From IMG/VR virus record IMGVR_UViG_3300013006_001934, positions 1 to 46,300 of that record: DNA of 46,300 bases; one strand, written 5' to 3'. Every line of letters begins with the position of its first letter. Position 1 is the stretch's first letter. Both the position numbers and the translations under genes were made by a program. Positions 2-35,192 of this stretch are shown here, piece by piece. The notes under the pieces were generated by a model, which saw only the letters and a program-made list of their open reading frames with translations, was not told the DNA's origin and ran no database searches. This stretch comes from a virus. Taxonomy: Duplodnaviria > Caudoviricetes.

Positions 2-3000
2 GAATATTTTAGCTTCTGCACTTGCAACATAGTTTGGATTTGGTATTAATGTTACTTCTTTACCTTTACTAGGAGTATAATCTATCCTTTTTAAATAAAG
101 ATTAAATTCCATATCTAAACGATCTGTTCGACCTGATACAGAGTTTGCTGCGGCTTGATCAGCTGTATCCCATATAGTTAAATCAACAATACTTCTAAAT
201 AAACTCAAAATCTTTAGGCTAAGTCTTAACCCATATAAATTTTTTGTTAAAATAGTAATAGACTTTTTATAAGTTCTAGATGTTCCATCTTGAAACTCTC
301 TTTTTCCAAAAAGCTTTGTTCCAACCACTTTTGTACTAGTTAATCTTCTCGGTAATTTAACTCCACGAGATAAAATTGTTTCAGGTCCGTCTTGTTTTAA
401 AACTAATTTATTTACATATAGACCATTATTTATTTTACGAGAATAAAAAGGCTCTTCTAATTTTATATTTTCCAGCTCTGTTAAATTTGTATGTCTTGGA
501 GCACAATCTGCATAATCGTAACTCATTCTAACAAATTCAAAATTAAAACTTCCATTCAGCGGATAGGAGTTATCTGCTAAAGGTATTTCATTCCAATAAA
601 TAGATCTAACTTGAGGATGATCTCCTGCATATTTAACTAATTTAACTCCGTTTTTGTAGCCTATATCTCCTTTTGCATATCCTGGATTTGGAATAATTTC
701 ATAATCTACTATTCCTTCTATAGGACCTTCGCCAAGGATATCTAATACAGATATATTAGTTAAAGAAGTAATACCAATGTCCTTAGACTCTTTAAGAGTA
801 TTACCATATCTATAACCATAACTATCAATTTTTATATCTGCTCCTGCTCTAGCGACTAGAGTGCCACAATTTTTTGGAACAACAGCAGATTCTAGAGCAA
901 AGTTTTCATAATAAGATACATATTTGCCAAACCTCCAATTACCCCAGCCGAACTCCTTATGGTATGCTCCCTGATATTGGGATCGCTCGGTGCGGGACAT
1001 ATCTACCCACTTCGTGAAAAGACAAGAATATACATCTCCTTTGCCAATTGTATATGTTGCAAAATACATATAAAAGAGTGAATAAACACTATTAAAAGCA
1101 CAAGTATCTACGAATTTAACATAAAATGGATAAGTTTTTCCATTTTGAGATGGAATTCCATTTGGATATTTAAGATCACCATTAGATAATCGTTCTTTTG
1201 CAGTAGTTGATGTTTTTTCTAAAGTACCCGCTGGCAAGGGTAATGTTGGCGGCCAAATATCCTCAGTTCCAGTAAGAAATACTACTTGATGCTGTACTTG
1301 AGTCGGACTAATAGTTATAGTTGGTATATTTTCTTCTGGATTAGCGCTCAAACCACTTTTAGCTGTATTTGTAGTCTTTACGCTAAGAGTCTCGCTAAAA
1401 GGTGTAGATGCTGGACCAGAACTGCTAGTGCTTGGACTGTAGCAAAGATTACCTAATTCATCTTGGGTTCCACTTTGGGAATATCCGAGACTATAATCAC
1501 CTGTCACTTTTACTTCAACCTCATTCTTTTTTTTGTCTGGATCAGTTAAACTCATCCAAAAACAACTTTCTGCATCTACTCCTTGTCCTGGAGTAAAAGT
1601 TGTACTGGGAACATTTTTTCCTATATATGAAATTTCTTTTGGTTCGCCATCTTTTCTTATTGTTTCAAATTCATTTTTATTTATTTTTTTAAATCTTATA
1701 ATTTCGTCACCAACAGTTCCTAAAGTTAAAGTTATTTTATTATTTTTTATAATATCGTAATTCCAAGACGGTAGATTAAGCTTGCTTGGATAAACACTAT
1801 TAGAATTTTTGTTTGAAAATTCATATGCAGAAAAATTAAATGTTAATGTAACTTTTGAACTCGAGCCTCTAGCATTAGAGCAGCTAGCATAAGCATAAAA
1901 TGTTCCTGCGTGTTTTGGAGAGCCTGTTATAGTTTTGCTAGAGCTATTAAAAGTCAATCCTTCTGGAAGATTAGAGATTCCAATGACCGTATGTTTATTA
2001 TTTAATCCTGCTAAACTTAGATTTCCTACAGATGTATTTACTTGTTCATTAAAAGTTTTAGCACTAATTGTTGGCAGAGTTATTGCACTATTATAGTCTC
2101 CATACAATACTATTAAATTAAAATCTATTCTATTTCCTGCATCAAAACCTGGTCCACCTATAGTAAATTTTAAGTTAGCAGTTTGCATTTCTGAACTTAA
2201 ATTAGATGAGACGGTGCCACTGATTGTTTTAGTAATTGCATTCCATGTTAATCCTAAATTTGCTAATATATTTTTAGTACTTGAATCAAAAAGATCTACA
2301 TTAAATTGAGTAGCTGGTAAATTAGTAGTCAATACATAAGAGAAGCTTTGTCCTTTAAATGCATGTACTGTAGGAGCACTGTTTACATAAATTGGATCAT
2401 TACCAAAAGGATCTGTACTTTTTATTGTTAAGCTTTTGCTAGCTTTAAATTCTTCTAATTTAGTAGTGTCACCTACTTTAACATATTTATTTCCATACAA
2501 AACAGATGTTATAATTCCTGTAAAATATCCAACATAATTAATTTGTCTTTTAGTTAAAGGCATGGTTGTGCTCTGAGTTGCGCCAAAAGTTAATGGATCT
2601 GCAGAACTTGAATCCCCAAGTTTACCAAAATTTGTATAAGTTAAATATGATGCGACTTGATCTAATGTTACATTAAAATTAAAAGCACTGCCATATTTTG
2701 TAGTCGTAATAGCAGCGCTAGTTATCTTTGACGAATTTAATGCGACTCCAGGAGTGCCATACATTACTAATCCATTTACAAAACTCCAAACAAACCAAAA
2801 ACCTCTTGATCTATCTATACCTTCTATCGATACTGAGCTAGAAGTAGGCGGTAAAGGGGTTGAAGTAGTTCCGCTGCTAAAGATTGGATTATAAGCCTCA
2901 ACAAGGTCATTAACATCTGCTGTCAGATTATTTACACCAGGTTTTCCTACGTCATTATAAAGAGTCTGTCCATCAAAGGACATGCCATTTTTTCCTCGCC

Positions 3001-3055
3001 AAGCTAATCCTTCAATGTATTTATTTGGATCGCAATCTTTACATTTTTTAGCCAT
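2..3055 (-). CDS. Tail tip / central fibre protein, lambda gpJ-like, with long N-terminal Ig-containing extension; truncated at window edge
   Basis: Absent from the ORF track because no stop lies in the window. ATG at 3055 (MAKKCKDCDPNKY...) reads open to the edge. The in-frame motif SVLDILGEGPIEGIV (~706-751) matches the gpJ N-terminal motif; He_PIG-like LPEGLTFNSSSKTITGSP; directly follows gpI. Confidence 0.85.
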   Translation of the reverse strand, partial: MAKKCKDCDPNKYIEGLAWRGKNGMSFDGQTLYNDVGKPGVNNLTADVNDLVEAYNPIFSSGTTSTPLPPTSSSVSIEGIDRSRGFWFVWSFVNGLVMYGTPGVALNSSKITSAAITTTKYGSAFNFNVTLDQVASYLTYTNFGKLGDSSSADPLTFGATQSTTMPLTKRQINYVGYFTGIITSVLYGNKYVKVGDTTKLEEFKASKSLTIKSTDPFGNDPIYVNSAPTVHAFKGQSFSYVLTTNLPATQFNVDLFDSSTKNILANLGLTWNAITKTISGTVSSNLSSEMQTANLKFTIGGPGFDAGNRIDFNLIVLYGDYNSAITLPTISAKTFNEQVNTSVGNLSLAGLNNKHTVIGISNLPEGLTFNSSSKTITGSPKHAGTFYAYASCSNARGSSSKVTLTFNFSAYEFSNKNSNSVYPSKLNLPSWNYDIIKNNKITLTLGTVGDEIIRFKKINKNEFETIRKDGEPKEISYIGKNVPSTTFTPGQGVDAESCFWMSLTDPDKKKNEVEVKVTGDYSLGYSQSGTQDELGNLCYSPSTSSSGPASTPFSETLSVKTTNTAKSGLSANPEENIPTITISPTQVQHQVVFLTGTEDIWPPTLPLPAGTLEKTSTTAKERLSNGDLKYPNGIPSQNGKTYPFYVKFVDTCAFNSVYSLFYMYFATYTIGKGDVYSCLFTKWVDMSRTERSQYQGAYHKEFGWGNWRFGKYVSYYENFALESAVVPKNCGTLVARAGADIKIDSYGYRYGNTLKESKDIGITSLTNISVLDILGEGPIEGIVDYEIIPNPGYAKGDIGYKNGVKLVKYAGDHPQVRSIYWNEIPLADNSYPLNGSFNFEFVRMSYDYADCAPRHTNLTELENIKLEEPFYSRKINNGLYVNKLVLKQDGPETILSRGVKLPRRLTSTKVVGTKLFGKREFQDGTSRTYKKSITILTKNLYGLRLSLKILSLFRSIVDLTIWDTADQAAANSVSGRTDRLDMEFNLYLKRIDYTPSKGKEVTLIPNPNYVASAEAKIF

Positions 3056-3059
3056 AAAA

Positions 3060-4379
3060 TTAAATTGATAATGAATTTTGCGACATAGAAATTCCTCCGA
3101 TGTCTTGAATATCTATCGGATATCCAAGATGTGAAAAGTAAAAACTTTTTGTTGGATAATTCTTTTCTCCTGCTCCTACGCCTATTGGAGCTTTACCATC
3201 GCTTTCATATTTATTTGTTCTAGACTGGATTCGATATATTTGATCATAGGAACTAAAGACTTGTTGACTACCAATAATGAGTCTTCCATATCCAATTGGA
3301 ATTGGTCCTCCTTCTCCTACTGTATTCACAGGACCATTAAACGTATAAGAAGGTTCTCCTCCTCCACTACCAGGAGATGCTTCAAAATCTGCAGAAGGAT
3401 TTGCGATTGATTGAGGACTTACCATTGGTGGCGGTTTCATTAAAAGCATAGAAACTCCAAGAGCTACTAATCCTAATATAGCTGGTAATATAGCAGCTAA
3501 TAAACCAAGAGATCCTCCTCCAGATACTGGAGCTAGCATAACTGACATAAATATCATAATTACCATTTTAGCTCCTGCCATACCACCTGCTGCAGCTTTA
3601 CCACCACCACCTCCTTTTCCTCCTCCTCCATTGTGAACAAGTATGTCGTTCGCAATATAAGTATGATTTGTTAACACATGAAAGTTATAAACTTTTTCAT
3701 TTGTATCTTCTTCTATCTTTTCTATAGGCATAACATCGCCACTTTTATGTATAAGAACGTCTCCAACTTTAAAATTTTCTAAAGGAGTGAATCTATTATA
3801 TTCATTAAAAAACCAATGATTACCTGTGGCTCTAATGATCGAGCCATCCCATAATGTAATTTTTAAAATTTTATTATTGTCATGTTCAAAGACTTTTTCA
3901 ATTATGTCAATTTGTATTTCTTTATCCTTATTAAAGGAAAATATTTCATCGCCTTCTTTTAAATCTTCTATATTCTTCATTCCGCTAGGAGTAGATATTT
4001 TTGTACCAGCTGGGAAACATCCTCCACCTCCACCACCCCCTCCGCCTCCTGCGCCTTCTAGCACTGGTATAATATCAATTGTCTTTAACTGGTTTTCAAA
4101 ATTCATAAACATTTCAGATTGAGATAACATTTCAAAATGCTCTTTTTTAACTTGACTGTTCTCTGTTGGCATTTCTTCTGCTTTAGGTACCCATAATGGT
4201 CTATTATTTATTAATATTTCATATTTAGCATTCTTTTCAGCTTGACTTATAAGAAATTTAGTTAATTTTTTCGTATTTGCTTCTATAGCCCTAAAAGCTT
4301 CTGCAACGCTTTTGACGTTCAAGTTCCATTCTTCACCAATCTCTTGGCCCAAGTTACCATGTAATTTAACTTTTACCAT
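3060..4379 (-). CDS. Tail assembly protein I (ubiquitin-like N-domain) with inserted Hint domain
   Basis: N-term VKLHGNLG...SVAEAFRAIEAN...IDIIPVLEGAGG; hydrophobic segment; C-term SYTFNGPVNTVGEGGPIPIGYGRLIIGS typical of gpI; lies between K and J. Confidence 0.9.
   Translation of the reverse strand: MVKVKLHGNLGQEIGEEWNLNVKSVAEAFRAIEANTKKLTKFLISQAEKNAKYEILINNRPLWVPKAEEMPTENSQVKKEHFEMLSQSEMFMNFENQLKTIDIIPVLEGAGGGGGGGGGGCFPAGTKISTPSGMKNIEDLKEGDEIFSFNKDKEIQIDIIEKVFEHDNNKILKITLWDGSIIRATGNHWFFNEYNRFTPLENFKVGDVLIHKSGDVMPIEKIEEDTNEKVYNFHVLTNHTYIANDILVHNGGGGKGGGGGKAAAGGMAGAKMVIMIFMSVMLAPVSGGGSLGLLAAILPAILGLVALGVSMLLMKPPPMVSPQSIANPSADFEASPGSGGGEPSYTFNGPVNTVGEGGPIPIGYGRLIIGSQQVFSSYDQIYRIQSRTNKYESDGKAPIGVGAGEKNYPTKSFYFSHLGYPIDIQDIGGISMSQNSLSI
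3630..4019 (-). other. Hint (intein/BIL-like) autoprocessing domain, 130 aa, no homing endonuclease
   Basis: Block A CFPAGTKISTPSG, block B IRATGNHWFF (TxxH), blocks F/G VYNFHV..NHTYIANDILVHN; next residue is Gly. Confidence 0.93.
4020..4049 (-). repeat. Gly10 tract immediately before Hint Cys1; a second Gly-rich tract follows the Hint (~3598-3629)
   Basis: Mixed GGN codons encode EGA-G10-C; downstream HN-GGGGKGGGGGK. Confidence 0.95.
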
Positions 4380-5118
4380 TGATTAACTCCTTGTACCTTA
4401 AAACATAGCTAGTATGCTTTTTAAGAAAACTATCATATATATTTACACAAGAAAAGGAATTGAAAGGCTGATGTAAAATTAATCCATCACCGATATATAC
4501 TGCCGCATGAGTAGGAAATTCATTGGAGACCCCAGGAAAAGTCATCATTAAACCATCAGATTTTTGTAATTTTACATTTTTATCTAATTTTAAAAAACCT
4601 TGGTGTTTGAAATTGCTCTCATACAAGTCCTTGATATCTTCTAAATATTTAGGATAAACTAAATCTTTAGGAAAACTTATATGTATGTTCTCTTCTTTCA
4701 AAGCGTATTCTTTCATTAATGTAAAGCAATCTGATTGGCCAAGAACAAAAGGTCTTCCAATGTAAGGATTATTTTCTTCATTTGGCTTATGAAAATTAAA
4801 AAAATCATATTTAATATTATATAATATATAATGAATCTTATAAAGATTACTATTATGTTTATCCATTTCACTAAACTCTATGCTTTCATTAACATGAGAA
4901 TGATAGCATCCTATAATTTTACCTAAAATAGAGCAATTTAAATAGTCTTGTGGGGATATCATAAAGTTATTTTTTCTATCGTCTGATCTATTTCGACAAG
5001 GATATATATCGAATTTATATGTTTTTTTGTCTAAATAAATAAAACCACAAATTTCTTCTTCAGGTTTTTTTAAAGCTAAATTTTTAATAGAATTTTTAAT
5101 TTGAATATTGAATTCCAT
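4366..5118 (-). CDS. Tail assembly protein K (JAB/MPN metallopeptidase + NlpC/P60)
   Basis: EEICGFI...YHSHVNESIEFSEMD (JAMM E, HxH, S, D); YIGRPFVLGQSDCF...HAAVYIGDGLILH. Start moved to the ATG at 5118 (MEFNIQ), just after the gpL stop. Confidence 0.9.
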   Translation of the reverse strand: MEFNIQIKNSIKNLALKKPEEEICGFIYLDKKTYKFDIYPCRNRSDDRKNNFMISPQDYLNCSILGKIIGCYHSHVNESIEFSEMDKHNSNLYKIHYILYNIKYDFFNFHKPNEENNPYIGRPFVLGQSDCFTLMKEYALKEENIHISFPKDLVYPKYLEDIKDLYESNFKHQGFLKLDKNVKLQKSDGLMMTFPGVSNEFPTHAAVYIGDGLILHQPFNSFSCVNIYDSFLKKHTSYVLRYKELINGKS

Positions 5119-5119: not shown

Positions 5120-7429
5120 TTATGCTGCTCCAGGGCTTTGCTGAGATTGGAATTTGCCTTCAACAGAAGGAAATCCTCCAAATGGAAGTATTCCGATCAA
5201 TTGATTTCCATTTCCATCTTTTGGCGCTTGAATTTCCATTTTAACTAAAGGATCGTATTTCGAACCATTGGTTCCATAAGTATCATTTAAAGATAAATTA
5301 ATCTTGCCGAAATTCATATTTTCTTTCCATCTCAATCTACATCCTTCTAGACTCTTAGAGCATGAATCTGCACTCCAGTATAATGTATTTGGAGGAGAGT
5401 TTATGGAATCTGAAGTATGATCCATTTTGCAAACAAAATAAAATTTAATTTGATTTTTTTCTATGTATATATAATTTCCGAATTTATAAGCTGTTCCTTG
5501 CTTCCAAAGAGCTTTATCTATCCATATACCAGAGGTCCTTGCAAGATAGAAAGTGTTGTTTGATTCATCTGCTACTGGTGGTGCAGATTGGAGCCCTATG
5601 CTTTTTTGTGAGGACGATATATTTGTTTTAACGGCTACCCCAGAGTTAGAAGAGGTTACTATTTGATCAACGTAACCATATACTCCTGAGTGAATAACAG
5701 TTAATCTATCTGATTTTTCATATAAACATCCAGCTCCTCGATAAGAGAACGGACAATTTTTAGATAACAAAAGTCTTCCAGGTAATTTTATTCCTTCCAC
5801 ATCTAAAAGAGACGCTAATTCATAAACTACATTTTGAGAATCTTCTTGCGTTTTTCTGTCTATGTAGTAAATGTCTGGAGTTAGTTCAACTTCATAAATT
5901 TCAATTTTATTTTCATCAACTTGGTCTAAGTAAAGTCTACCCATATTGTGATATGAATTATACATTTGAGCATCACCAGTCGTATTCAAGTCGTCTGTTG
6001 CATAATCTGTAGCAATTAAATTAATATTTTGAGTTCCTAATTGAACATTGTCTCCTGTATGAGAAGCTACAAATGTACATCCTGTTGAGCTAATATTTTT
6101 TAAATATTGATCGTATGCAAATCCTGAGGAGCCCCAACTGTTAAATAATAACTTTGGCATATTTGAAAATTGTGTTGAAAATGAAATATCTAATTCCCCA
6201 GAAGTAGCTGAACCAAAATTATAATTTAATCTTAATACTGCTAATTTAGCATTTTCATTAGTAGCTGAATTTGTGCCAGTATAAATTCCAGTAGGTATAG
6301 TTAAGTAATTAATATCAAAACTACCAGTTAAAGATTTTGAGAAAGAAGTGGTAAAACTTGAGGTTGTCTGAGAAGAAATCGAATAATTAAAACTTTGCCC
6401 TTTAGCTTCCTCTATGGATCTAAAAGATAAGAAAGTAGCTAATTCAGAGCTCGATTCAGAAAAAGTGACAGGATAATTAACAGTTGAGCTTGTATTATTA
6501 GTGAAAGCTTTAGAGTCATAATAACAAAGAACTTTAATTTTATTATCTGTTCCTAATTTTCTAAACTCTTTCGAATCGTTTTGTATTAATCGCGTATAGC
6601 CTGCACTTGATGGAATAATAAAATTATCTGAAGAAAAACTGTCTATAATATCAGATGAATTGTTTACTTGTGCATTAACAAGCAAATTAAAAAAATCTAA
6701 AGAATTTAAGTGATAATTGTTCTTTTGAAGATCAATATTTAAAGTTTTTAGTCTATCGTCTGTGCGTAAAAGCGTAAAGATTTTATTAGTAGTCGCAGTA
6801 GTCTTTCTTGTATAAACTAACCATTTAGCAAAATCAATCGGGCACCTTTCTAAAGATCTAACAGTTAATGCATCTCCATCTCTTGAGGCCCAAGGGGTAT
6901 CTGTAAAAGTATTAAAAGGATTGACTCCTGCTGGAAAATTATTTGGACTTAAGTATCTTACAAAGGTTTTTCTTCTTGTCACTTTAGATCCAACAATATC
7001 TTTTAATTCATTTATTTGCATTCTTATGTACTTGTAAAAAGAGTTAAATTCGTCATCTAAGAATTGACTAGAAAATTTAATTCTTGGGGTTGGTATTGTT
7101 CCGTTTGAAGTTATATCAAATTGCTCTCCATAAATTGGAAATGGAAAATAAAGGTTTCCTCTCCAAGAAATAATTCCTCTATTTATATTGAAAAGATTAA
7201 AATCATTGTGTACTCTAATCACTCCGTCTTTAACTGGACCTTCTTTGTTTGGATAAGACACCATCGCTGGTTTAATCTCATTCAAATCAATTTCGTAAAG
7301 AAAAACTGGAGTACTAGGTTCTATTTCATGAATGTGAGAATTTATAGACCTTTGAGCTTCAAGCGCTTGTAAAAAATATTCACTTGCTTGAATAGTACCA
7401 TTCGCATTTATTCTTGGGCCCATTCCCAT
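5120..7429 (-). CDS. Minor tail protein L (lambda gpL-like) with large internal insertion
   Basis: IVGSKVTRRKTFVRYL, DIYYIDRK, YELASLLD, CPFSYRGAGC...DSCSKSLEGC (4 Fe-S Cys), LPFGGFP. Confidence 0.9.
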   Translation of the reverse strand: MGMGPRINANGTIQASEYFLQALEAQRSINSHIHEIEPSTPVFLYEIDLNEIKPAMVSYPNKEGPVKDGVIRVHNDFNLFNINRGIISWRGNLYFPFPIYGEQFDITSNGTIPTPRIKFSSQFLDDEFNSFYKYIRMQINELKDIVGSKVTRRKTFVRYLSPNNFPAGVNPFNTFTDTPWASRDGDALTVRSLERCPIDFAKWLVYTRKTTATTNKIFTLLRTDDRLKTLNIDLQKNNYHLNSLDFFNLLVNAQVNNSSDIIDSFSSDNFIIPSSAGYTRLIQNDSKEFRKLGTDNKIKVLCYYDSKAFTNNTSSTVNYPVTFSESSSELATFLSFRSIEEAKGQSFNYSISSQTTSSFTTSFSKSLTGSFDINYLTIPTGIYTGTNSATNENAKLAVLRLNYNFGSATSGELDISFSTQFSNMPKLLFNSWGSSGFAYDQYLKNISSTGCTFVASHTGDNVQLGTQNINLIATDYATDDLNTTGDAQMYNSYHNMGRLYLDQVDENKIEIYEVELTPDIYYIDRKTQEDSQNVVYELASLLDVEGIKLPGRLLLSKNCPFSYRGAGCLYEKSDRLTVIHSGVYGYVDQIVTSSNSGVAVKTNISSSQKSIGLQSAPPVADESNNTFYLARTSGIWIDKALWKQGTAYKFGNYIYIEKNQIKFYFVCKMDHTSDSINSPPNTLYWSADSCSKSLEGCRLRWKENMNFGKINLSLNDTYGTNGSKYDPLVKMEIQAPKDGNGNQLIGILPFGGFPSVEGKFQSQQSPGAA

Positions 7430-7447: not shown

Positions 7448-8047
7448 TTATGCAGATACTTCTTCAAACTTAGCACGAATAGAATAATTTTCTTTAAATG
7501 TGAAATTGGTTTCCCATTCTCTACAAACATATTTTGTTCTATAAGACTGTTCTGAATAAATATCTCCTGGATCATAAGCGAAAGCTTGAATTGATGCTCT
7601 TTGCTGTAAAAAGTAAATAATTGCTCTAGCTTCTCTAGATGTTCTTTGATCAAAATTTAGTTGCAAAGTTTTTAAGTCTGGATTTATACTCTTAGCTATT
7701 CTTTGTTCATATCCATTCCCAAACCTAATTGTTGAAACCGCTGGTTTATGTTGGAAGGAAGATGTGTAAGACGGGGTCCAAAGAAATTTACATACTGTTG
7801 ATCTTTCACTCACCCTTACAATGCCTCCCCAATATTCATTGCCCAGATCTGTTCCTGGTTCACTTGCCGTTATTTTTAAATGATCTTTTAAACAATACCA
7901 AACCACATTTTTATATCTTATAATATCATTTTTTAAGAAAACGTAATTTAGAGACTTATTTGCCCAAAGAATCATAGAATCATTTACTGATCCTGTGTCC
8001 TCTGCTCCAAAACTTTTTCGACTATATATTGATGTACCCATTCCCAT
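7448..8047 (-). CDS. Minor tail protein M (distal tail) with small N-terminal aromatic module
   Basis: PAVSTIRFGNGYEQRIAKSINP...IIYFLQQR...AFAY...AKFEEV, gpM signature; upstream of gpL. Confidence 0.88.
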   Translation of the reverse strand: MGMGTSIYSRKSFGAEDTGSVNDSMILWANKSLNYVFLKNDIIRYKNVVWYCLKDHLKITASEPGTDLGNEYWGGIVRVSERSTVCKFLWTPSYTSSFQHKPAVSTIRFGNGYEQRIAKSINPDLKTLQLNFDQRTSREARAIIYFLQQRASIQAFAYDPGDIYSEQSYRTKYVCREWETNFTFKENYSIRAKFEEVSA

Positions 8048-8616: not shown

Positions 8617-9423
8617 ATGTTATCTAGATTTACAAGAGAATTTAATAGGGTCTATATTAATGATGTTCCTGTAACAGGAGCGCAATCAATTTCTGCTAGT
8701 TACGACCTCCCAATAGAGAATATTAAATATTTAGGCTCTAATAATAATCATTTAAATAGGGCTCCAATTGGGATATTCATTGGGGCTCTAAATTTAGACT
8801 CTTTGTTCATTAATAATGATCAATTTATTCAATACACTGGCGAATTAGGAGCTAATTTGAAAGTCCAATATGAGGATAATACATTCGGTATGAATAGCGG
8901 ATATATGGCCGAATATGATTTTTCTTGTGGAATAGGCACAATACCAATTTTATCTACAAAATGGAACTTTTACAGTGATTTTGGTAATATTCCATCTTCA
9001 AAATTGCCTTTTCCTATGGATGAAAGCAAGCTTAATATAGTTAATCCAGGAGACATACAGATAGATTTTAATGAATTAGAAAATGAGAAAATTAACAATT
9101 TAAAGGTCAATATTAAATGCAATAGATTGCCTATTTTTGATGCAACTTCTGTAAAGCCTGTGGATGTTAAATTGCAATATCCAATTATTATTACCACAAG
9201 CTTTTCAATATCTTTGCATGATTATCAAAACAAACGCTTATTTGACTATCCAAGTAATCAAAATGTCTATGATTTTAATATAAATTTATACAAAAATAAT
9301 ACATCGACTGTAGTTAACTCTTTTAATATAAGAGATGCTTTGCTGATTAGAGAAGACTATAGTGTAGATGTAGATGGAAGTAGTTTAATGCAATTAACTT
9401 ATGAAAGCACTACGTCAAGATAG
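8617..9423 (+). CDS. Putative tail tube-like structural protein, paralog 1
   Basis: All-beta pattern, GAQSISASYDLP..., CNRLPIF...PVDV; resembles the two following ORFs. Confidence 0.5.
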   Translation: MLSRFTREFNRVYINDVPVTGAQSISASYDLPIENIKYLGSNNNHLNRAPIGIFIGALNLDSLFINNDQFIQYTGELGANLKVQYEDNTFGMNSGYMAEYDFSCGIGTIPILSTKWNFYSDFGNIPSSKLPFPMDESKLNIVNPGDIQIDFNELENEKINNLKVNIKCNRLPIFDATSVKPVDVKLQYPIIITTSFSISLHDYQNKRLFDYPSNQNVYDFNINLYKNNTSTVVNSFNIRDALLIREDYSVDVDGSSLMQLTYESTTSR

Positions 9424-9455
9424 TGTAATTCAAATAGGTAAAAGGAGCAAGGAAT
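9423..9455 (+). promoter_or_regulatory. GTGTAATT motif + TAAAAGGAGCAAGG RBS
   Basis: Same architecture as 8550-8581; the 14-mer TAAAAGGAGCAAGG is identical. Confidence 0.65.
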
Positions 9456-10286
9456 ATGGCCAGAATATATTACGATCAATGTGAAATAAAAATAAATAAT
9501 ACTGGCGTATTAGCGGTATCTGCTAGTTTTAGTTCAGATATTACTTTAGGACCAATCTACACTCTAGGAAAGAGAAAACCTTTTAAAAACCAAATAACAA
9601 CTGGACCTAGTTCTAGCACTTTCCAAATATCTTATTTGATAAACCCTACAGGCGACCCAGCTTTTAATTCCGTTAAAGAGATCAAAAATTTTATATCTTC
9701 TCCGACAAATTATGATGGAGTAACTATAGCATTCGCTGGAGTAACTGGACAAAAATGTTATTTAAATAATTATAATTTAAAAATTGAACCTAATAATGTT
9801 ATAACTGCTCAAGCTAGTTATATTACATATGATCCAATTATAACAAATACTTTATTTCAAACTCCAAGGGATTTAGCTAATCCAAATAACGCTTCTGCAA
9901 CTAGTATTGCTCATAGCTCAAAAACTAATGTAGCATCTGGAAGAAATATTTTTGCTAAAGGCACCGCCAGCGAAATTACTGCTGATTTATATAGTTTATC
10001 TTATGCTTTTACTTGTAATCTAACTCCAATTTATGCTTTAGGACAACAAACTCCATTAGAAGTAAAACCAATTAGAGCTCAAGAGACTGTAAATATTACA
10101 GAAAATTTATTCACAAAATTAGTTTATACTGGTGAAAATATACCATTAAAAATTGAAATGTCTGGACTTTTAGATTCTAATAGTTTCACAATAGAAATGC
10201 CAGATGCATTTATTAATAATTCTACGTTAGCATCTAATCTTGATGATATTGTCCGAGCAACTAAAACAATAGTTCAATATTATTAA
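9456..10286 (+). CDS. Putative tail tube-like structural protein, paralog 2
   Basis: Internal repeat TLGPIYTLGKRKP / NLTPIYALGQQTP; shares the YLNNYNLKIEPN-type motif with paralog 3. Confidence 0.5.
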   Translation: MARIYYDQCEIKINNTGVLAVSASFSSDITLGPIYTLGKRKPFKNQITTGPSSSTFQISYLINPTGDPAFNSVKEIKNFISSPTNYDGVTIAFAGVTGQKCYLNNYNLKIEPNNVITAQASYITYDPIITNTLFQTPRDLANPNNASATSIAHSSKTNVASGRNIFAKGTASEITADLYSLSYAFTCNLTPIYALGQQTPLEVKPIRAQETVNITENLFTKLVYTGENIPLKIEMSGLLDSNSFTIEMPDAFINNSTLASNLDDIVRATKTIVQYY

Positions 10287-10287
10287 T

Positions 10288-11259
10288 ATGTTTTATAATG
10301 GAAAAAATGTAACTTTAAAAATCAACAATCAATTGATTGTTGCTACTGAAGCTCAGATGTCTTATGAGGCTCAAATTAGCCCTTATCTAGAAGTTGGTCA
10401 AAGACATGCTAATGATATAAGAGCAGATAATACCATACAAGGATCTTTAAATTTTAGCTATCACTATACTGGAGCAGATCCAATTAAAAATTTATTAAGC
10501 TTGGATGAAGGAATTACTTTTGATTTTGGAGGAATAAAACAAACTGGTTATATAAAAAGTTATAATGCTCGATTTAGTCCGCATAACCCAGTAGTATGTT
10601 CAACAGAAATATTATTTTTTAGAAGCCCAACTGGAACTTTTGTCCCTACTTATGATAATGGAGAAAATGTAAATAATATAGTTCATATTAATGACATTAG
10701 TATTAGTAATTTTAATAATCAAAATTTAACAGGTTCATATTTAAGTGCAAGTTATAATTATTCTACAGATGTAAGACCAGAGATTTATATTGGCGACACT
10801 TTTGAAAGAAGAGGAGTTTTTGGTTTAAAAGAAATTACTTTAAATATCACTTGTGACAATTTAAATCCTTTAGTAGAAATATCTGGCACAAGAGTAGGAG
10901 TAGTCTTGGGTACTTCACCTTTTGGAACATCTCTTGTGACTCAAGGATATGGAGTTACTGGATTTTTAACTAAAAAAGCTTTCCAAGCTAAAAATGAAGA
11001 ATTCTTAGTAAATGAATTAACTATCAGACAATTTAATGTGCTTGATGAAGCTACTATCTCATCCTTTTCCCCAACTTCTGGTGGTTATAAAGACTCAGTT
11101 ACAATTAATGGAACTAATTTTAATTATGTAGCTAAGGTTTTTTTTGGTGAATATGAAGCAGATGGATTTACTATAAATAATAGCAATACAATTACTGCTG
11201 TTGTACCTAGGATAAAAACTGCAGCTAGTCAACAAATAAGGATGCTAACTTTAGCATAA
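10288..11259 (+). CDS. Putative tail tube-like protein, paralog 3, with C-terminal IPT/TIG domain
   Basis: GYIKSYNARFSPHNPV; C-term ISSFSPTSGGYKDSVTINGTNF...ITAVVP. Confidence 0.6.
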   Translation: MFYNGKNVTLKINNQLIVATEAQMSYEAQISPYLEVGQRHANDIRADNTIQGSLNFSYHYTGADPIKNLLSLDEGITFDFGGIKQTGYIKSYNARFSPHNPVVCSTEILFFRSPTGTFVPTYDNGENVNNIVHINDISISNFNNQNLTGSYLSASYNYSTDVRPEIYIGDTFERRGVFGLKEITLNITCDNLNPLVEISGTRVGVVLGTSPFGTSLVTQGYGVTGFLTKKAFQAKNEEFLVNELTIRQFNVLDEATISSFSPTSGGYKDSVTINGTNFNYVAKVFFGEYEADGFTINNSNTITAVVPRIKTAASQQIRMLTLA

Positions 11260-11264
11260 TATAT

Positions 11265-12995
11265 ATGGGACTTATTACTTCTACTGGATTTTTTAAATAT
11301 ATTCCACCAAATCCAAAGATAACTTCTACCTCTAGTCCAACTGGAGCTTTAGGCCAAGTGATCTCTATAAATGGAGAAGATTTAGATTATGTTGATACTC
11401 TTTCTTTTGCTGGAGAAAATTTAAATTTTTCATTAGTAAATGGCAATCAAAGGATGGATTTTCTAGTTCCTTCAAACCCAGATACTGGGAAATTATTAAT
11501 TGCTTCTGATACTTTTACAATTACTGGTCAAAATAATTTACCTTTTTTACCCATATTTGAATTAGAGGATTTTGATCCTGGAAATGGATCAGAAGGAGAT
11601 GTGATCAATATTAGTGGAAAAGTTTTAACGTCTATCAATACTGGATATATTTATGCTACTCCAATATTAAATGATATAAGTTATTACTTCAGTGGAGCGA
11701 AGAATTACTTTGACATACCAATGTCAACTAAAAGTGGAGTTTATAGTATAAATTTTGCAGAAAATATTAATCCTACTGGTGAAATAAATAATTTTGAAAG
11801 ATTAGCTGCTAATTATTTTAATTTTAGCAGTGGAGCATCATTAAATGTTAGGTATAACATTACAGGGGATTTAAGTAAAAAATATTATGAAAACCATGTA
11901 CTTTCTCTCTCTGCAATGATTACCACGGGTTTCCAATCTTATGCAATCCAGTTACCAACTGGATTTTCTGGAGTTGTGATTCCTATCTCTTCTGGTCTAA
12001 ATCATACAAATTATGCTGTTTTTTTAAATCTACATAAACGTTTTCCTGAAGATTCATCTACTAATAATTTTAATCAGATCTATATTAGCGAAAAAACTAC
12101 TGGATCTTTTAAGATAAACGTATCAAATGTCCTAGATACTGAAATGGATTTAGATGTCTTGTTATTTACATCTAGTGGATTCATGTTGGATTCTGGAGTT
12201 TTTGAAAGAAATTTTGTAAATATTCCTGCAAATTCATCTTCTGAAATTATATATTTTGATCGATTAAGTGGAATAGATCGACAAAATAATTTATATCCAC
12301 CGTTTTTATTCACAAGCATAGAAAAAATTGATGGTATAAATATAGGTAATTCTTACATTTCTACAAATGTATCCAATTTAGAAAAAAATAATTTTACAAT
12401 TAACGTCCCAAATAAAACGATCAATAATACTTTTCGTTTAAATTATTTTACAATTAAAAATGATTATACTAATTTAGCAACATTTGTTTATGAAGGAGAC
12501 AAGTCTTATTATAAAAAAGTTTATTTGTTTACTGGATCTCAGGACACTTTTCAAGAACGTCTACCAATGAAAAATATAACAATTAATAATAAAAATAATT
12601 TGTCTTTTGAAGTGCCTTCAACTGATTATTATATAAATAGTAAAATTGAATTAAATAATACTGCCAATATTTCAAAACAATTTGCAACTAATTTTATAGA
12701 AACTCCAACTCCTACTTCTGTGAATCCTAGTGGCGGATTTAACGGAACGAATATAAGCATACAAGGCAAAAGTTTTAAAAAGCCTATATTAATTGATAAT
12801 CCAGCTGCATATGAAAGCTGTTTTGTAAGATTTAGATATGCTGACAATATTTATCCAGAAAGTAAAAGCACTTTTCAAACTTCTTTTAGAATCATAAACA
12901 AAGGATTATTAAGCGGATCTATACCTTTGAGCAGTATTCCAACTGGTCGATACGCAATACAAATGATGTCTGAAAATGGAGGATTATTCGAATGA
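11265..12995 (+). CDS. IPT/TIG-domain tail fibre or appendage protein
   Basis: PKITSTSSPTGALGQVISINGEDL; FDPGNGSEGDVINISG; PTSVNPSGGFNGTNISIQGKSF; central lectin-like repeats. Confidence 0.7.
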   Translation: MGLITSTGFFKYIPPNPKITSTSSPTGALGQVISINGEDLDYVDTLSFAGENLNFSLVNGNQRMDFLVPSNPDTGKLLIASDTFTITGQNNLPFLPIFELEDFDPGNGSEGDVINISGKVLTSINTGYIYATPILNDISYYFSGAKNYFDIPMSTKSGVYSINFAENINPTGEINNFERLAANYFNFSSGASLNVRYNITGDLSKKYYENHVLSLSAMITTGFQSYAIQLPTGFSGVVIPISSGLNHTNYAVFLNLHKRFPEDSSTNNFNQIYISEKTTGSFKINVSNVLDTEMDLDVLLFTSSGFMLDSGVFERNFVNIPANSSSEIIYFDRLSGIDRQNNLYPPFLFTSIEKIDGINIGNSYISTNVSNLEKNNFTINVPNKTINNTFRLNYFTIKNDYTNLATFVYEGDKSYYKKVYLFTGSQDTFQERLPMKNITINNKNNLSFEVPSTDYYINSKIELNNTANISKQFATNFIETPTPTSVNPSGGFNGTNISIQGKSFKKPILIDNPAAYESCFVRFRYADNIYPESKSTFQTSFRIINKGLLSGSIPLSSIPTGRYAIQMMSENGGLFE

Positions 12996-15900
12996 GCGTA
13001 TTTTTTACAATAAATTCCTCGCAACCAACTATTCAAGCTCCATCAACTGCTTTGGCTATCAATGGGGAAACAATTTTTATTTCTGGAGAGCAATTCAATA
13101 AAAATATTATTAAAATTTCTGGACAAGATGTATATAATCCATCTTCAAAGTTCACGTTTAATGGAATTTTTAACCAAAATATATCTGGAATTAATAATAC
13201 ATTATCTAAAGATACAGTAGGATTTACATTGTCTGGTATTTCTCCATCTAAATACAAAGTATATGTTTATAATGACTCAAGCGTTTCAAGTAATTATTTT
13301 GATTTAAAAGTCTTAGCTCAACCCACCATTAGCGGTTTTGATAATAAAAATGTGCTTCCAGGTCAATATATTAAAGTATCTGGATCTAATTTTTATCCTG
13401 GTGCAAATATTTCATTTGTTGATGATTTAGGTAATAAAGTTCGTCCATCTTTTCAAGAAACTGGATTATATAGAGTTACTGGGGCAGATACGCAAAATTA
13501 TGGAACTGGATATCAAATTGGAAATATTTTCTATTTAGAAGGAATAAAAAATTATACTAAAAATTCTTATGCAATTCTTACGGTATCTACCACGGGCATA
13601 AATGGTTCTCTTGGGAGCTTTAATATAAATAATTCTGGTATTTTTACTGTTCCAAATTTAAATACTGAAATTGAATTTATTCCAAGGACTGGAAATGGTA
13701 GAGGAGCTTTAATTAATTTTCTTTATGAAAAATACGAGAATACAGGATTATTAGAGTTCCTAGAGTTTCAAGTACCATATAATATTAGAAAAAATCAAAG
13801 CGGTATAATAGAAAATATAAAATTTAAAGATATATCTAGCGGAACTCAATTCAGTGGTTTTTATATATCTGGATATCCTAATATATATAATTTTTCTCCA
13901 CAAACTGGTTTGATAGAATCTACTAGCGTTTTACTAAGTGGGGATAATTTATCATTCACGCAATCTATTAAAATTGGTGATATTCCCATAAGTATATACT
14001 CTCTGCTAGGAGATACAGGAATATCTTTTACAATACCAAATTTTAGTTCTTCTGATCATATTACCATTTCTGGAATTTATGGTTCAGATAAAAGTGCAAA
14101 TATCTTAAGCGTTTATTACCCTCAATTAACTGCTAGTGGTTTTACTCCCAATGATGTATTAGCTGGCACTGGAGCAGTAGTAAACATAAGTGGTAGATAT
14201 CTTCAAAGAATAAATTATATTAATCTTGGGCAACCAAATGTATTAATAAAAGATATTATAGTTAATGCAAACGGTACTTTAGCTTCATTTGTTCTGCCAA
14301 ATGCTTATACTACCACATCTCTTAGAATTTTTTCTGTAGATTTTCCTACTTCTGGTCATTTAATTAAATCTCCAAGTTCAAATAATCTTTTAATATCTAC
14401 CACTAGACTTTCTGAAGCAAATATTGATATCAGATATTTATCTGGTATACAAGCTGCGAAATATTTAGACGAAGTAGAAATATATAGCTCTAGTGGAACT
14501 TCTGGAGATTATGGAAATCTAACTAACTCAGATGTCTTCTTTTTAGGAATTACTGGGCATATAGATGAACCAAATGCCTATTCAATCAGTGGAATTAAAG
14601 TCTCAAATTCTGCTACTGGTATCAGATTTAAAGTGCCAAGAGAAGTAAGAAATCCTCAAGCAAGAATTAAAATTAAAAGAAATCGTTTTGGAGAAAGCTA
14701 CATTCTTCCATCAAACAAATCAATTGATGTATTGCCTACTATTTTTAATGTAACTTCTTCTAATACTTTATATAATAGTTTAGGATATTTAACTATATCA
14801 GGTATCAATGCTTCTAATGCTAATTTAATTTATTTTAGTGGATATTCGGGTACTCAAAATCTTTTAGGATATAAAGAAATAAAAAGTTTTCCTCTAGAAA
14901 TAGTGAGTAGAAATTTATCTCAAATAACTGCAGCTGGTGAAAGCAATTTAACTGGATATTCAATTTTTGAAGCTAAACTTGGTGGAGATATAACTGGATC
15001 TGGAGAATTATTTTTATTTAATAACTATTATGATACTGGAATTGGATATGAAAATAATATTATTACAAAAAATAAAAATATTAAAGTATCAGCAATTAGC
15101 GGGTTTCGTCCACCAAATTCAGATATATTCACTAGCCCTGGATATGTTTCTACATCATTAGAAAATCCATTTTTTTATCAAATACAAACCAATTCTAGAG
15201 CAACTCAATTTGAATTTTCTGCAACGACAATCTCTGGAGTTGGAGTAGGAGAGTTTCCGAGTGGATTAGAAAATTATTTAAATCCTCAAAATCAAATCTT
15301 TGGTCAACCTATGATTGGTGGAATTTTTTATTTAAAAATAAGAGCTTTAGATGGAGAGAGACCAAATGAGGGGATGATTTTAAATTTAGCAGTTGGAACT
15401 TCTGGCAGATCTTTAAGTGGTCCAGGAATAACTTATCGAGGAGACTGGAATACTGGAATCGGATATATAGGAAGTAATTTGAGGAGAGATGTAGTAAGCA
15501 CGATTCCTCCAACATACGGCGTTAATTATTGGTATGCAGCATATACCAATATAGATTCTGAACCTGCACCAGGTAATCCAAATTGGATTCCATTCACAAA
15601 TGAATTTTCAGCAACAGCTACTAAAATTTTATTAGCTGAAGAATCTAATATTACTAATTCATTAAATATGGGACAAGAAGGAGTTCCAAGTGGATTTATT
15701 AAAACTGTTAATGATGTTAATGTAGACGATGGAAGTGGATTTTATATTGGGTATGATAATAGATACAATCCTGGCAGACCAAAGTTCAGAGTTGGAAATC
15801 AGTCTAGTTATATTAAATTTGATGGAAAAGGACTTGATGTTGTTGGCGCACTATCTGGTATTATTACAACTTCAAGAAATGTTACAGATGCTCAAAATAC

Positions 15901-18475
15901 AGTAAATAGTGATTATTCTGTGGCGTTAGGTTTAAATAATACTATAACAGCTAATAATGATAATGTATTTATATTCGGAACAAATAATACAGTCACTGGT
16001 GCTCGTGGAAGTAGTATTATTGCTGGAAAAAATAATAGAATCACTTGTGTAAGTAGAATTTTTACAGATAATTCAAATATAGGTGGTGGATCAGAAAATC
16101 TTGTGTTGGGTTCTTTCTGCAGCATCTTAGGCGGATATGGAAATTCAGTAGACGCAACTTCATCAGGACTTTCTTCAATAGCTAACCAAATGTTTATAAA
16201 TGATATCAGCGGGTCTGATAACATTGTAGAATATTTATCAGAAGTATTTACAACTGACTTAGCTATATTAACCTCTTTAGAATCTATAGAAGATATATAT
16301 AGAACTGAAAAAATTTCTAATATTACTGTTGGAGATTATCAAATGAGTGTCACGCCACAGTTTAGTGGCGATGAATATCTTAGAGTTAATAATTGGGTCA
16401 GTTTATTATCTCCAAACTTGTACTCTGGGTCTTTTGTTACAGAAGATCCAAATTATATTTGCGAGTTTAAAGTAGGAAAAACAGGCTTACCCTCTGGTTC
16501 GAAAAGATATTTTGTGCCATTTACAAAAAACTTCACCCATTACTCGGGCGAAAAAAATCTAGTTATTCTAACTAGTATAATTGAAGGAGACCAAAACTAT
16601 AAATTAATTAATCCAAGTGGATTAGATTCAAGTGGTTTCTATTTGAATTTTCCCAACAATCTTTCTAGCGGATTAAACGTCAGTTATTTCGTAGGTCCTA
16701 CTGGATTTTTCACTGGAACAGAATTTAATTCATCAGTATCTTTAGAGATAAACAAAAATCAACCATTCTTGAACTTAATATCAGGAACAGGATACAGATA
16801 TGACATACCATTACGAAGAAAAGGTATTAATTTCCTAAATACAGTTAATAATTTTAGTCATGAATCTATTTATATAAGTAATTTATCTGGTAACTCTTCA
16901 GATTTAAAATTAGCTTTAAGCTCTAATATAAAAGACGAATATGTAGATTGCTTGTCAATAGGATATACTGGAAGGATTAATAACCAAAATATACAAGTGT
17001 ATCAAACTGGATTAAACTCTGGGAGTGGGGCAAAATTTATATCTTTATTATCTAATATCAATGATAGTGGATATATACCATTCTGTAACATAGTTCAGAC
17101 TGGAAATAGTATCGATAACGTTTATGCATTTATGATATCAGGAAAAACACATTCTGGATTTTATTTTGAGACTGCAGAGGTTCTAAAAGAAAATATTATA
17201 TTAAATGTAAGTATATATAGGACTGGTCAATTTACTTTTGATAATACAATCATCAATGTCGAATCTCAAAGGTTGACTGGATTTTTATCAAAAGATGTAT
17301 CTATTAAATTTCAAAATAATTTAAATTATTACCCAAATACTTTAATAACAACAGAGAATGTTAATTCTAGCAATATTTATATAATATATGCAAAAAACAT
17401 ATCAAAAACAGGATTATATGCTAAACTTTCAGATGATTTGAAAACAGGAGAAATAATTAATATAAATCATGTTTCTTTTTCTAACACTGGCGATCAAGTT
17501 TTTGATCTTAAAGCTAATACATTAATTGATTCAAGCAGCATCTTAAGTGGTGATACATGCATCTACTTGAATAATAATTTTAATCATTCTGAGTTGAAAG
17601 TCTTTCCTAGAGTATATAGTTTAAATAGCGATTTCATAAATCGACCTTATATTATTCAAGATAAAACAAATAATAGTTTTTGTTTCAAATTATCTGGAGT
17701 CTTATCTCCTTCTCAAATGACAGGGATTGTATGCGAATATATAGCTTCTGATCTAACCAGAGATCTTAATATAGCTAGAAGTGTGTTATCAACTTTTAAT
17801 TATAGTCGTCTTGGCGCATTTGGATTCGCAGATGTTGGAAGTTCATCAATACTTGGCGGCACAGGAAATTATATTAAGGGGCTTGTTTCTACAATAGCTG
17901 GAGGAGTTTTAAATCGAATCGTTGGAGATTTCAATTTGATTCCTGGAGGAAGATCTAATCAAATTATTGATCTATCTGATCAAACTTCACAATATCCAAA
18001 AAGTGCGTTTTGTACGATATTAGGAGGCGGAGGTAATCTTATTGAAGGAAATTCTCAATATTCTAATATTATTGGTGGCAGTGGAAATCATATATTGAAT
18101 TTAGACTTGTCGAATGATAAAGCTGGATCTACTATCGTTGGTGGCTCTTCTAACGAAATATCTGGAGCTTTTTCTACTATTCTTGGTGGAGAAAACAATA
18201 GCATATCTGGATCTTATAGCCATGTTTTCGGAAGAAATATCAACCTTACAAAACCTGGCTCCGTTGTTATTAGTGATAGTAGTACTGGAAATAAAAATAT
18301 CAATCAGGAAAATACTATAGTATTAAATTTCTCTGGTGGGCTATATATTACTGGAAATGCACTTGGAACATCTCCTATAGTTCTTGACGTAACTAAATTA
18401 CCTACTTCTTCTGCTAGTTTACCAATCGGAGCTGTGTATCTTATTGGAACAGCTCTAAATGTTAAAACTACTTAA
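12992..18475 (+). CDS. Large tail fibre / adhesin (IPT/TIG repeats, Ig, GG-x2-N beta-helix repeats, lectin-like repeats)
   Basis: Multiple P-x-I-x-x-F-x-P...G...I-x-G-x-N IPT starts; repeated S-x-I-x-GG-x-x-N motifs at ~15900-16160 and ~17830-18260. Confidence 0.78.
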   Translation: MSVFFTINSSQPTIQAPSTALAINGETIFISGEQFNKNIIKISGQDVYNPSSKFTFNGIFNQNISGINNTLSKDTVGFTLSGISPSKYKVYVYNDSSVSSNYFDLKVLAQPTISGFDNKNVLPGQYIKVSGSNFYPGANISFVDDLGNKVRPSFQETGLYRVTGADTQNYGTGYQIGNIFYLEGIKNYTKNSYAILTVSTTGINGSLGSFNINNSGIFTVPNLNTEIEFIPRTGNGRGALINFLYEKYENTGLLEFLEFQVPYNIRKNQSGIIENIKFKDISSGTQFSGFYISGYPNIYNFSPQTGLIESTSVLLSGDNLSFTQSIKIGDIPISIYSLLGDTGISFTIPNFSSSDHITISGIYGSDKSANILSVYYPQLTASGFTPNDVLAGTGAVVNISGRYLQRINYINLGQPNVLIKDIIVNANGTLASFVLPNAYTTTSLRIFSVDFPTSGHLIKSPSSNNLLISTTRLSEANIDIRYLSGIQAAKYLDEVEIYSSSGTSGDYGNLTNSDVFFLGITGHIDEPNAYSISGIKVSNSATGIRFKVPREVRNPQARIKIKRNRFGESYILPSNKSIDVLPTIFNVTSSNTLYNSLGYLTISGINASNANLIYFSGYSGTQNLLGYKEIKSFPLEIVSRNLSQITAAGESNLTGYSIFEAKLGGDITGSGELFLFNNYYDTGIGYENNIITKNKNIKVSAISGFRPPNSDIFTSPGYVSTSLENPFFYQIQTNSRATQFEFSATTISGVGVGEFPSGLENYLNPQNQIFGQPMIGGIFYLKIRALDGERPNEGMILNLAVGTSGRSLSGPGITYRGDWNTGIGYIGSNLRRDVVSTIPPTYGVNYWYAAYTNIDSEPAPGNPNWIPFTNEFSATATKILLAEESNITNSLNMGQEGVPSGFIKTVNDVNVDDGSGFYIGYDNRYNPGRPKFRVGNQSSYIKFDGKGLDVVGALSGIITTSRNVTDAQNTVNSDYSVALGLNNTITANNDNVFIFGTNNTVTGARGSSIIAGKNNRITCVSRIFTDNSNIGGGSENLVLGSFCSILGGYGNSVDATSSGLSSIANQMFINDISGSDNIVEYLSEVFTTDLAILTSLESIEDIYRTEKISNITVGDYQMSVTPQFSGDEYLRVNNWVSLLSPNLYSGSFVTEDPNYICEFKVGKTGLPSGSKRYFVPFTKNFTHYSGEKNLVILTSIIEGDQNYKLINPSGLDSSGFYLNFPNNLSSGLNVSYFVGPTGFFTGTEFNSSVSLEINKNQPFLNLISGTGYRYDIPLRRKGINFLNTVNNFSHESIYISNLSGNSSDLKLALSSNIKDEYVDCLSIGYTGRINNQNIQVYQTGLNSGSGAKFISLLSNINDSGYIPFCNIVQTGNSIDNVYAFMISGKTHSGFYFETAEVLKENIILNVSIYRTGQFTFDNTIINVESQRLTGFLSKDVSIKFQNNLNYYPNTLITTENVNSSNIYIIYAKNISKTGLYAKLSDDLKTGEIININHVSFSNTGDQVFDLKANTLIDSSSILSGDTCIYLNNNFNHSELKVFPRVYSLNSDFINRPYIIQDKTNNSFCFKLSGVLSPSQMTGIVCEYIASDLTRDLNIARSVLSTFNYSRLGAFGFADVGSSSILGGTGNYIKGLVSTIAGGVLNRIVGDFNLIPGGRSNQIIDLSDQTSQYPKSAFCTILGGGGNLIEGNSQYSNIIGGSGNHILNLDLSNDKAGSTIVGGSSNEISGAFSTILGGENNSISGSYSHVFGRNINLTKPGSVVISDSSTGNKNINQENTIVLNFSGGLYITGNALGTSPIVLDVTKLPTSSASLPIGAVYLIGTALNVKTT

Positions 18476-19263: not shown

Positions 19264-19292
19264 ATATTACCGCTGTTTTAAGTTTATGTCAA
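19264..19292 (-). promoter_or_regulatory. sigma70-like promoter
   Basis: TTGACA-N17-TAATAT, 6 nt before ATG 19257. Confidence 0.7.
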
Positions 19293-25524: not shown

Positions 25525-25765
25525 CTTTGCTTTTCTTTTTCCGCTTTTTATTTGATTTAAAATTGTTAATTGACTTATCTATATTTATTTGAAATTCGCT
25601 TAAGCCTTCTTTAAGAGCTGCAAAAGACTTCTCTTCATTATTCAAAGAGTAAAATACGTCTGCTTTACTATTAGTCTTACCATGCTGGATAGTAATAAAT
25701 AAATAATCTATATTTTCTTTCTCTAGTTTACCTAGAATATCGTAGATGTTGTCCATTGATGCCAT
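25508..25765 (-). CDS. Hypothetical protein
   Basis: 85 aa, preceded by a good promoter, overlaps the dnaE start. Confidence 0.65.
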   Translation of the reverse strand: MASMDNIYDILGKLEKENIDYLFITIQHGKTNSKADVFYSLNNEEKSFAALKEGLSEFQINIDKSINNFKSNKKRKKKSKDDEDY

Positions 25766-25772
25766 ATTGAGT

Positions 25773-26443: not shown

Positions 26444-26447
26444 TGTA

Positions 26448-35156: not shown

Positions 35157-35162
35157 ATATAT

Positions 35163-35191: not shown

Positions 35192-35192
35192 T

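Follow-up and report, generated by a model that had tools for sequence, protein, structure and literature searches.

This study was concerned with a 46,300-nucleotide stretch of viral DNA (Duplodnaviria; Caudoviricetes; IMG/VR record IMGVR_UViG_3300013006_001934, positions 1 to 46,300), referred to here as the window, and with its gene gpI, which encodes a lambda-type tail assembly protein carrying a Hint domain as an insert. The gpI open reading frame (ORF; 3060..4379, minus strand) encodes 439 amino acids and matches the tail assembly proteins of PHROG 32 (E 4e-23). From its N-terminus the protein consists of a ubiquitin-like (Ubl) head of the MoaD/SAMP beta-grasp type (residues 1-110; 4050..4379), a spacer of ten glycines, Gly10, encoded by mixed GGN codons (G111-G120, with G120 as the -1 residue; 4020..4049), the 130-residue Hint (C121-N250; 3630..4019), the linker GGGGKGGGGGK directly after it (residues 251-261, which include the +1 residue Gly251 and Lys255; 3597..3629), a hydrophobic segment that aligns with its counterpart in lambda gpI (residues 272-315, within hydrophobic windows spanning about 266-319; 3435..3566), and a conserved gpI motif of invariant columns, predicted from lambda gpI to be the plug in the tail-tip lumen (residues 344-380; 3240..3350), all on the minus strand. 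A preliminary description of the locus had read the same layout. The adjacent gene, gpK (4366..5118, minus strand, 250 amino acids), holds a Prok-JAB domain (about 4813-5079) and an NlpC/P60 domain (about 4399-4758) in one ORF. The NlpC/P60 cysteine is intact, and so, as had been described, is the JAMM site (E22, H73-S-H75-x7-S83-x2-D86; H73-D86 at 4861-4902). The tail-tip genes follow the lambda-type order M-L-K-I-J on the minus strand and belong to a large phage genome. We consider it probable that the Hint is a self-removing insert that colonises linkers processed by gpK, where splicing and cleavage would both yield a normal plug.

The Hint was classified by sequence and by fold. It scored 43.2 bits with the Pfam family PT-HINT (PF07591; E 6e-11), for which the cut-off is 27.7, its best solved relative by sequence was 2LWY, a C. 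thermocellum domain of the bacterial intein-like (BIL) type (E 2.9e-14), and 2LWY was also its best fold match (Foldseek 5.3e-12; root-mean-square deviation (rmsd) 1.7 over 136 columns), followed by BIL2 of Tetrahymena. The predicted local distance difference test score (pLDDT) of the Hint region was about 78-94 in a full-length gpI model that was poor elsewhere (mean pLDDT 57), and the Ubl was therefore folded alone. Like 2LWY and PT-HINT, the gpI Hint has about 130 residues, an N-terminal cysteine (C121), a TxxH motif (T185-x-x-H188), a terminal His-Asn pair (H249-N250), a HINT fold without an endonuclease, and no Cys, Ser or Thr at +1, where G251 stands. A class 1 intein needs one of these three residues for its branched intermediate, and a canonical intein was rejected. 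The gpI Hint is thus an intact type A BIL by sequence and fold, and autocatalysis is predicted for it. Its host sets it apart, since this is a phage tail-tip assembly protein rather than a polymorphic toxin or cell-surface protein, and it lies just behind a protease-processed Ubl with oligo-glycine on both flanks. Type A BILs are described as forming a thioester, cyclising their terminal asparagine and being able to rejoin their flanks through the freed amine, with cleavage dominating (PMC4031507, PMC7664689; PT-HINT background in PMC3482391). One type A BIL spliced only once its +1 residue had been changed to Cys (PMC4031507, PMC7664689). This result and the missing +1 nucleophile would fit a degenerate mini-intein that no longer processes and is carried as a passenger, an explanation to which we give very little credence in view of the conservation of the domain.

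The homologs of gpI carry a Hint at this same site in 28 clusters (one partial), a count resting on 120 listed of 172 gpI homologs; the insert is therefore neither a chance event nor a one-off. The catalytic residues, the glycine at -1 and the glycine at +1 were present in 28/28 Hint-bearing clusters, and all catalytic positions were invariant in the 23 sequences aligned (23/23). The preliminary description had allowed for homologs with Cys, Ser or Thr at +1, which none of these clusters has. The ratio of nonsynonymous to synonymous substitution rates (dN/dS; 19 genes, 71 pairs) was lowest in the Hint, at 0.157, compared with 0.211 in the Ubl and 0.193 in the C-terminal part; at a mean dS of about 0.85 these values are rough. 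The non-canonical Hint is under purifying selection as judged from these sequences, which agrees with its earlier description as intact and argues against a degenerate passenger, as does the consideration that an inert Hint, lying between the gpK site and the plug, would stay on a lumen protein that forms trimers. The flanks are less uniform. Residues -2/-1 are GG in 17 of the 28 clusters and QG in the other 11, and among distinct locus genes Gly-Gly is found in 10/19 and Ser at -1 in 2/19. The spacer between Ubl and Hint has 9-11 residues in 27/28 clusters, and a lysine downstream of the Hint is invariant, at +5 in 24 clusters and at +6 in four. The 80 best among 442 viral loci contained 81 gpI ORFs, 23 of them with a Hint. 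GenBank phages yielded no gpI Hint (five records, none reaching 60% identity, with helicase or hypothetical as annotation), prokaryote genome contigs scanned with the alignment of Hint-bearing sequences yielded 29 pattern matches of which none was confirmed, and a Hint-only search at 241-769 amino acids yielded 40 new proteins, none of them gpI-like.

Residues 1-113 of gpI, folded alone with 53 sequences, gave a pLDDT of 86, and the model matched MoaD, SAMP1 and CysO with VIA Z scores of 8.0-8.6 (rmsd 2.2-3.0 over 75-83 residues). The top ten structural rows in VIA were all of MoaD/SAMP/CysO/Urm1 types, and Foldseek gave the same families with a best E of only 0.015. The beta-grasp fold of residues 1-110, a check set in advance, was thus borne out. 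Residue 110 of the model aligns with the final residue of MoaD (1fm0_D 81) and of S. aureus MoaD (2q5w_D 77), G109-A110 of the window gpI aligns with G96-A97 of lambda gpI, and G109 was kept in 23/23 aligned gpI sequences. The preliminary description had placed the Hint exactly at the C-terminal glycines of the Ubl and had proposed a Ubl-Gly-Gly thioester. The Ubl ends at G109-A110, and because residue 110 corresponds to the last residue of MoaD, the thioester would form ten residues past that end, next to a Gly-Gly pair that many of the homologs lack.

The gene pair resembles gpI and gpK (TAPI/TAPK) of lambda in its beta-grasp head ending in a conserved glycine, its Gly-rich linker, hydrophobic segment and plug motif, and in its adjacent JAB plus NlpC/P60 partner within the order L-K-I-J. 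It differs from lambda in the 130-residue Hint and the long Gly/Lys linker between head and plug. In lambda, cleavage of the Ubl from gpI by gpK is reported as an assembly checkpoint (PMC12908700, a conference summary in which no cut site is named), a cleavage predicted earlier (PMC1779556), and in virions only gpI residues 134/135-222/223 are resolved, as a trimeric plug inside the tip lumen (PMC10721106, PMC12617516). A model of the JAB domain of the window gpK in complex with gpI 1-113 scored 0.83, and the best control scored 0.00; the mark set for such scores was reached by 116/157 solved pairs and by 2/215 mismatched pairs. The runs agreed in at least 91% of contacts, with a partner pLDDT of at least 84. 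In the model, gpI residues 104-113 lie on gpK residues 22, 73, 75, 83 and 86, and D86 touches G109. Binding of the window gpI by gpK is thus predicted from the model, and its cleavage from lambda, for which alone the cut has been reported. The Hint lies ten residues past the predicted cut and therefore on the plug side. Wherever a row contained a complete Hint-bearing gpI (31 rows, counting duplicates), its gpK had a strict JAMM motif, and the Hint as a replacement of gpK was rejected, since the JAMM site is intact wherever a Hint is present. Of the gpK ORFs that lack the strict pattern (21/80 and 10/72), most differ in spacing, have Thr in place of Ser or are truncated, and they need not be inactive. 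In four loci (L179, L182, L183, L185) the JAB part of gpK is a separate 121-amino-acid ORF, and the adjoining gpI is unusually long in three of the four; other tail operons have two gpI-like genes each (L058, L086, L088-L089, L092-L094, L116).

Close relatives of the window gpI lack the Hint. Five clusters at 63-74% identity (P0029-33) have no Hint and keep the Gly/Lys linker, and in a 40-row tree built with the linker and Hint left out they nest among the Hint-bearing rows. A single Hint-bearing clade was rejected (approximately unbiased (AU) test, p 4e-6), and a 144-residue type of Hint occurs at three places in the gpI tree (AU p 2e-9). In locus L147 a Hint-less gpI gene of the P0032 type stands beside a gpK with an intact JAMM site. 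The preliminary description had seen gpK as the de-conjugase of a dedicated ligation system; cutting of gpI is the ordinary lambda reaction, and the site is intact in L147 as well. A metagenome scan with P0032 returned eight loci with best identities of 61-71%, whose spans fit Hint-bearing genes, and no Hint-less sister.

Related Hints were also found in leaders of the neighbouring tail-tip protein gpJ. The Hint phylogeny rests on a careful 35-row tree; an earlier 87-row tree was made in quick mode and was not relied on. The 130-residue gpI Hints group with gpJ-leader Hints (P0125/126; support 98/99), and the 144-residue gpI Hints group with tandem gpJ-leader Hints (P0121/124; support 99/96). 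A single clade of gpI Hints was rejected (AU p 0.0005), which leaves two lineages in a tree that does not give the direction of transfer. A scan confirmed 157 stretches with gpJ-leader Hints, of which 80 loci were kept, with 49 distinct complete Hints. These have Gly at -1 in 49/49 (only three of the 49 matched a pattern demanding that Gly), Gly or Ala at +1 in 47/49 and Gly at +2 in 49/49, and the leaders in front of them, seen in at least 49 distinct forms, are only about 10-25 residues long. Upstream of the Hint, 45/49 have a hydrophobic-x-G-[A/S/Q/E] motif, which 143 of 1658 background windows also show; downstream, a stricter version occurs in 37/49, compared with 11 of 1658 in the background. 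None of the 86 gpI ORFs in these loci has a Hint. In L046-L125 and L206-L211 the short gpJ leader ends hydrophobic-x-G-[A/S]-G(n), like the end of the gpI Ubl, and this is often repeated after the Hint. In L035 (2395-5616) and L036 (6687-11696) a Hint-less gpI is followed by a gpJ with two tandem 144-residue Hints, separated by a 7-residue Gly/Lys linker.

Thus, gpJ leaders appear to mimic the gpI cut site, and the Hints of this group would colonise linkers processed by gpK. The gpJ leader is possibly a second substrate of gpK, and because many gpJ leaders look like the gpI cut site, gpK may mature gpJ too. Among Hint-less gpJ proteins of GenBank phages, six of seven start with a cut-site-like leader (six were picked from top matches, which is not a survey), and lambda gpJ starts directly at GKG. 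Between gpI and the gpJ leader, the residue that follows G-[A/S] co-varied weakly (SK with SK in four cases, K in gpI with G in gpJ in five), and this signal was not used. GenBank phages held no close gpJ-leader Hint among 20 records, all weak and annotated as terminase, helicase or hypothetical; in another query, with Hint plus gpJ, two records outside the 40 rows listed reached a coverage of at least 80%.

Hints of this kind are not confined to tail proteins. Related Hints follow poly-glycine in Tim44-like secreted bacterial proteins and in other proteins, with no Ubl. Because they do so, the glycine flanks are best regarded as a habit of the Hint family. The glycine spacers as a Ubl-specific sign of domestication, as they had been taken to be, were rejected, since the nearest Hints sit behind poly-glycine in gpJ leaders and in secreted proteins without a Ubl. 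The Tim44-like proteins (P0122, P0145, P0146, P0155-P0164) have a signal peptide, poly-glycine and one to three Hints with Lys at +1. GP38-type Gly-rich adhesins (P0118, P0165, P0169) have a Hint followed by poly-glycine and lysine, the P0073-P0117 group comprises proteins of about 740 amino acids that end in two or three tandem Hints, and P0123 has seven tandem Hints. A Hint internal to gpJ was found in 18 locus rows (including L007:7324-12687), in a hypervariable loop just before the gpJ core and with R, G or M at +1; it is absent from L001, L002, L006, L008, L014 and the window, whose gpJ (2..3055, minus strand) runs off the window and lacks it at about residues 673-774 (734-1039).

The explanation that we favour, a self-removing insert in linkers processed by gpK, proposes the following steps, all of them inferred. 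First, the intact C1 and TxxH would allow an N-S shift at G120-C121. Secondly, cyclisation of Asn250, for which the His-Asn pair is intact, would release Gly251. Third, the Gly251 amine would attack the Gly120 thioester and join Ubl-Gly10 to the GGGGK-plug; otherwise the thioester would hydrolyse. A glycine thioester and a glycine amine should be the least hindered pair in terms of general chemistry. The spliced product would have the layout of the Hint-less sister alleles and would be restored as a substrate for gpK, which would then cut at G109-G111 during tip assembly, as in lambda. The cleavage route would free the same plug directly. The site would tolerate an imperfect splicer, as the plug would begin with oligo-Gly/Lys whichever route was taken. 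The insert probably moves between gpI linkers and gpJ leaders by recombination at runs of glycine codons; a hydrophobic-x-G-[A/S]-G...GGK motif is common to both. Hydrolysis and aminolysis by glycine, two of the fates that the preliminary description had listed for the thioester, therefore stand as known type A BIL chemistry; the dedicated Ubl ligation system that it had put beside them does not.

Several points weigh against this explanation. First, a purely tolerated insert without an endonuclease should be easily lost, yet 28/33 clusters of the clade retain the Hint, and the three partial genomes of relatives contain PT-HINT in gpI and gpJ alone; this hints at a benefit. Secondly, if cleavage dominated, the Ubl would be released early and the gpK checkpoint bypassed. 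The intact JAMM site is difficult to reconcile with this, unless splicing works efficiently or processing runs slowly. Third, C-terminal cleavage by itself would suffice to free the plug, yet C1 and TxxH do not vary; the downstream lysine is just as constant (28/28). In addition, the counts given above are of related sequences and not of independent events, and no joint skipping the Hint was found in contigs of four sequencing runs, two of them possibly the source of the window, contigs being prone to drop rare variants. Lastly, the complex model was built on alignments made for this study and included zinc, which was absent from the calibration, and it may reflect solved JAB-Ubl pairs learned by the predictor. 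Because JAB-Ubl complexes are an already-solved structure type, the model may show likeness and not proof.

The same retention and confinement to tip proteins are the reasons for weighing a domesticated, self-timed pro-domain, in which the Hint blocks or senses and keeps gpI and gpJ incompetent for assembly until autoprocessed, beside gpK. Purifying selection on the Hint fits such a role, which the short and varied gpJ leaders make easy to picture. In lambda the Ubl itself is a removable assembly gate (PMC12908700), and zinc switches the Tetrahymena BIL2 (PMC8616854). However, the Hint-less sister in L147 has the same operon and JAMM site, the type of Hint has been swapped repeatedly, as the 144-residue type at three places indicates, close relatives differ in whether they have the internal gpJ Hint, and the same Hint family occurs in unrelated secreted proteins. 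We therefore regard a timer or gate as unlikely, while the high retention within tip proteins keeps it the foremost of the alternatives.

The preliminary description had gone further and proposed that, with neither E1 nor ATP, the Hint would turn Ubl-Gly10 into a thioester that could be passed on to a lysine (Lys255/261 or one in a tail or host protein), with gpK as the de-conjugase. The precedent that it drew on exists: the Tetrahymena BIL2 joins ubl4 to Ras and to a ubl5 lysine without requiring ATP (PMC8616854). The BUBL1 BIL2 (6Y75, 6TMM) resembles the gpI Hint, of which it is the second-best fold match, in following a Ubl, in lacking a +1 nucleophile, in having a downstream lysine and in needing no E1. 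It differs in its two flanking Ubls, the lysine of ubl5 being the acceptor (PMC8616854). The window gpI has a single Ubl before its BIL, a 10-residue spacer, a dedicated JAB and Hint-less sisters, and in the place of a second, acceptor Ubl its C-terminal flank is structural (Gly/Lys linker, hydrophobic segment and gpI motif). The Bil and Bub systems also combine a Ubl with a JAB peptidase but need E1 and E2, whereas the window pair is phage-encoded and structural. No E1 or E2 family was found among the 42 of 47 window ORFs scanned, the neighbours of gpI and gpK being tail genes, and ThiF was found in none of three partial relative genomes (29-63% complete). The host Bil system tags the central tail fibre, and its authors speculate that deubiquitinases in phage tails counter Bil (bioRxiv 2023.09.04.556158); the Bub JAB cuts its Ubl pre-protein after the glycine (PMC11601596). 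The present results neither connect the Hint with such host defence, a link that the preliminary description had called speculative, nor speak against it.

The invariant lysine, the nearly constant spacer, the invariant C1 and the lack of E1 fit such a transfer, and gpK would, by the complex model, still cut the conjugate at G109-G111. However, the thioester would be displaced from the Ubl end, the Gly-Gly pair is not constant, the GK repeat exists without any Hint in Hint-less gpI sisters and in gpJ of cultured phages, no Ubl precedes the nearest Hints, and the Hint is dispensable in sister lineages. In addition, ordinary gpI maturation explains the intact JAMM site, and, given the BIL mechanism, any lysine would face competition from the glycine amine that is released in the active site. 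Transfer to lysine is for these reasons improbable. We are just as sceptical of its wider form, a tail-tip ligase free of E1 and ATP that attaches the Ubl-Gly10 head, or a short gpJ leader mimicking a Ubl, to Gly/Lys motifs in tip proteins, with gpK removing the tag at the checkpoint; if true, two genes would make up a whole viral cycle of writing and erasing a Ubl tag, and lysine transfer would be a phage counterpart of ciliate E1-free ubiquitination. As a whole, the preliminary description was sound on the domains, their conservation and the precedent, and its E1-free conjugation was not upheld, the Hint being absent or replaced in sister lineages.

The locus places a known self-processing domain in lambda-type tail-tip proteins, a class of host for which a literature search, with most subscription papers outside its reach, found no description of a Hint in either gpI or gpJ. 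The Gly/Gly junction would lend itself to the study of splicing that lacks a side-chain nucleophile, and possibly to use as a traceless ligation tool.

The remaining tail-tip genes of the window are gpL (5120..7429, minus strand, 769 amino acids, Pfam PF05100), whose large insert contains a weak match to an H-type lectin, and gpM (7448..8047, minus strand, Pfam PF05939). Tail-like genes at 8617-18475 lie on the strand opposite to the M-L-K-I-J block. At 22987-27727 the functions of DNA polymerase III alpha are split among genes (catalytic part, exonuclease and PHP domain), and a long run of sugar-nucleotide, glycosyltransferase and methyltransferase genes occupies 33993-46300 and 19284-22359.

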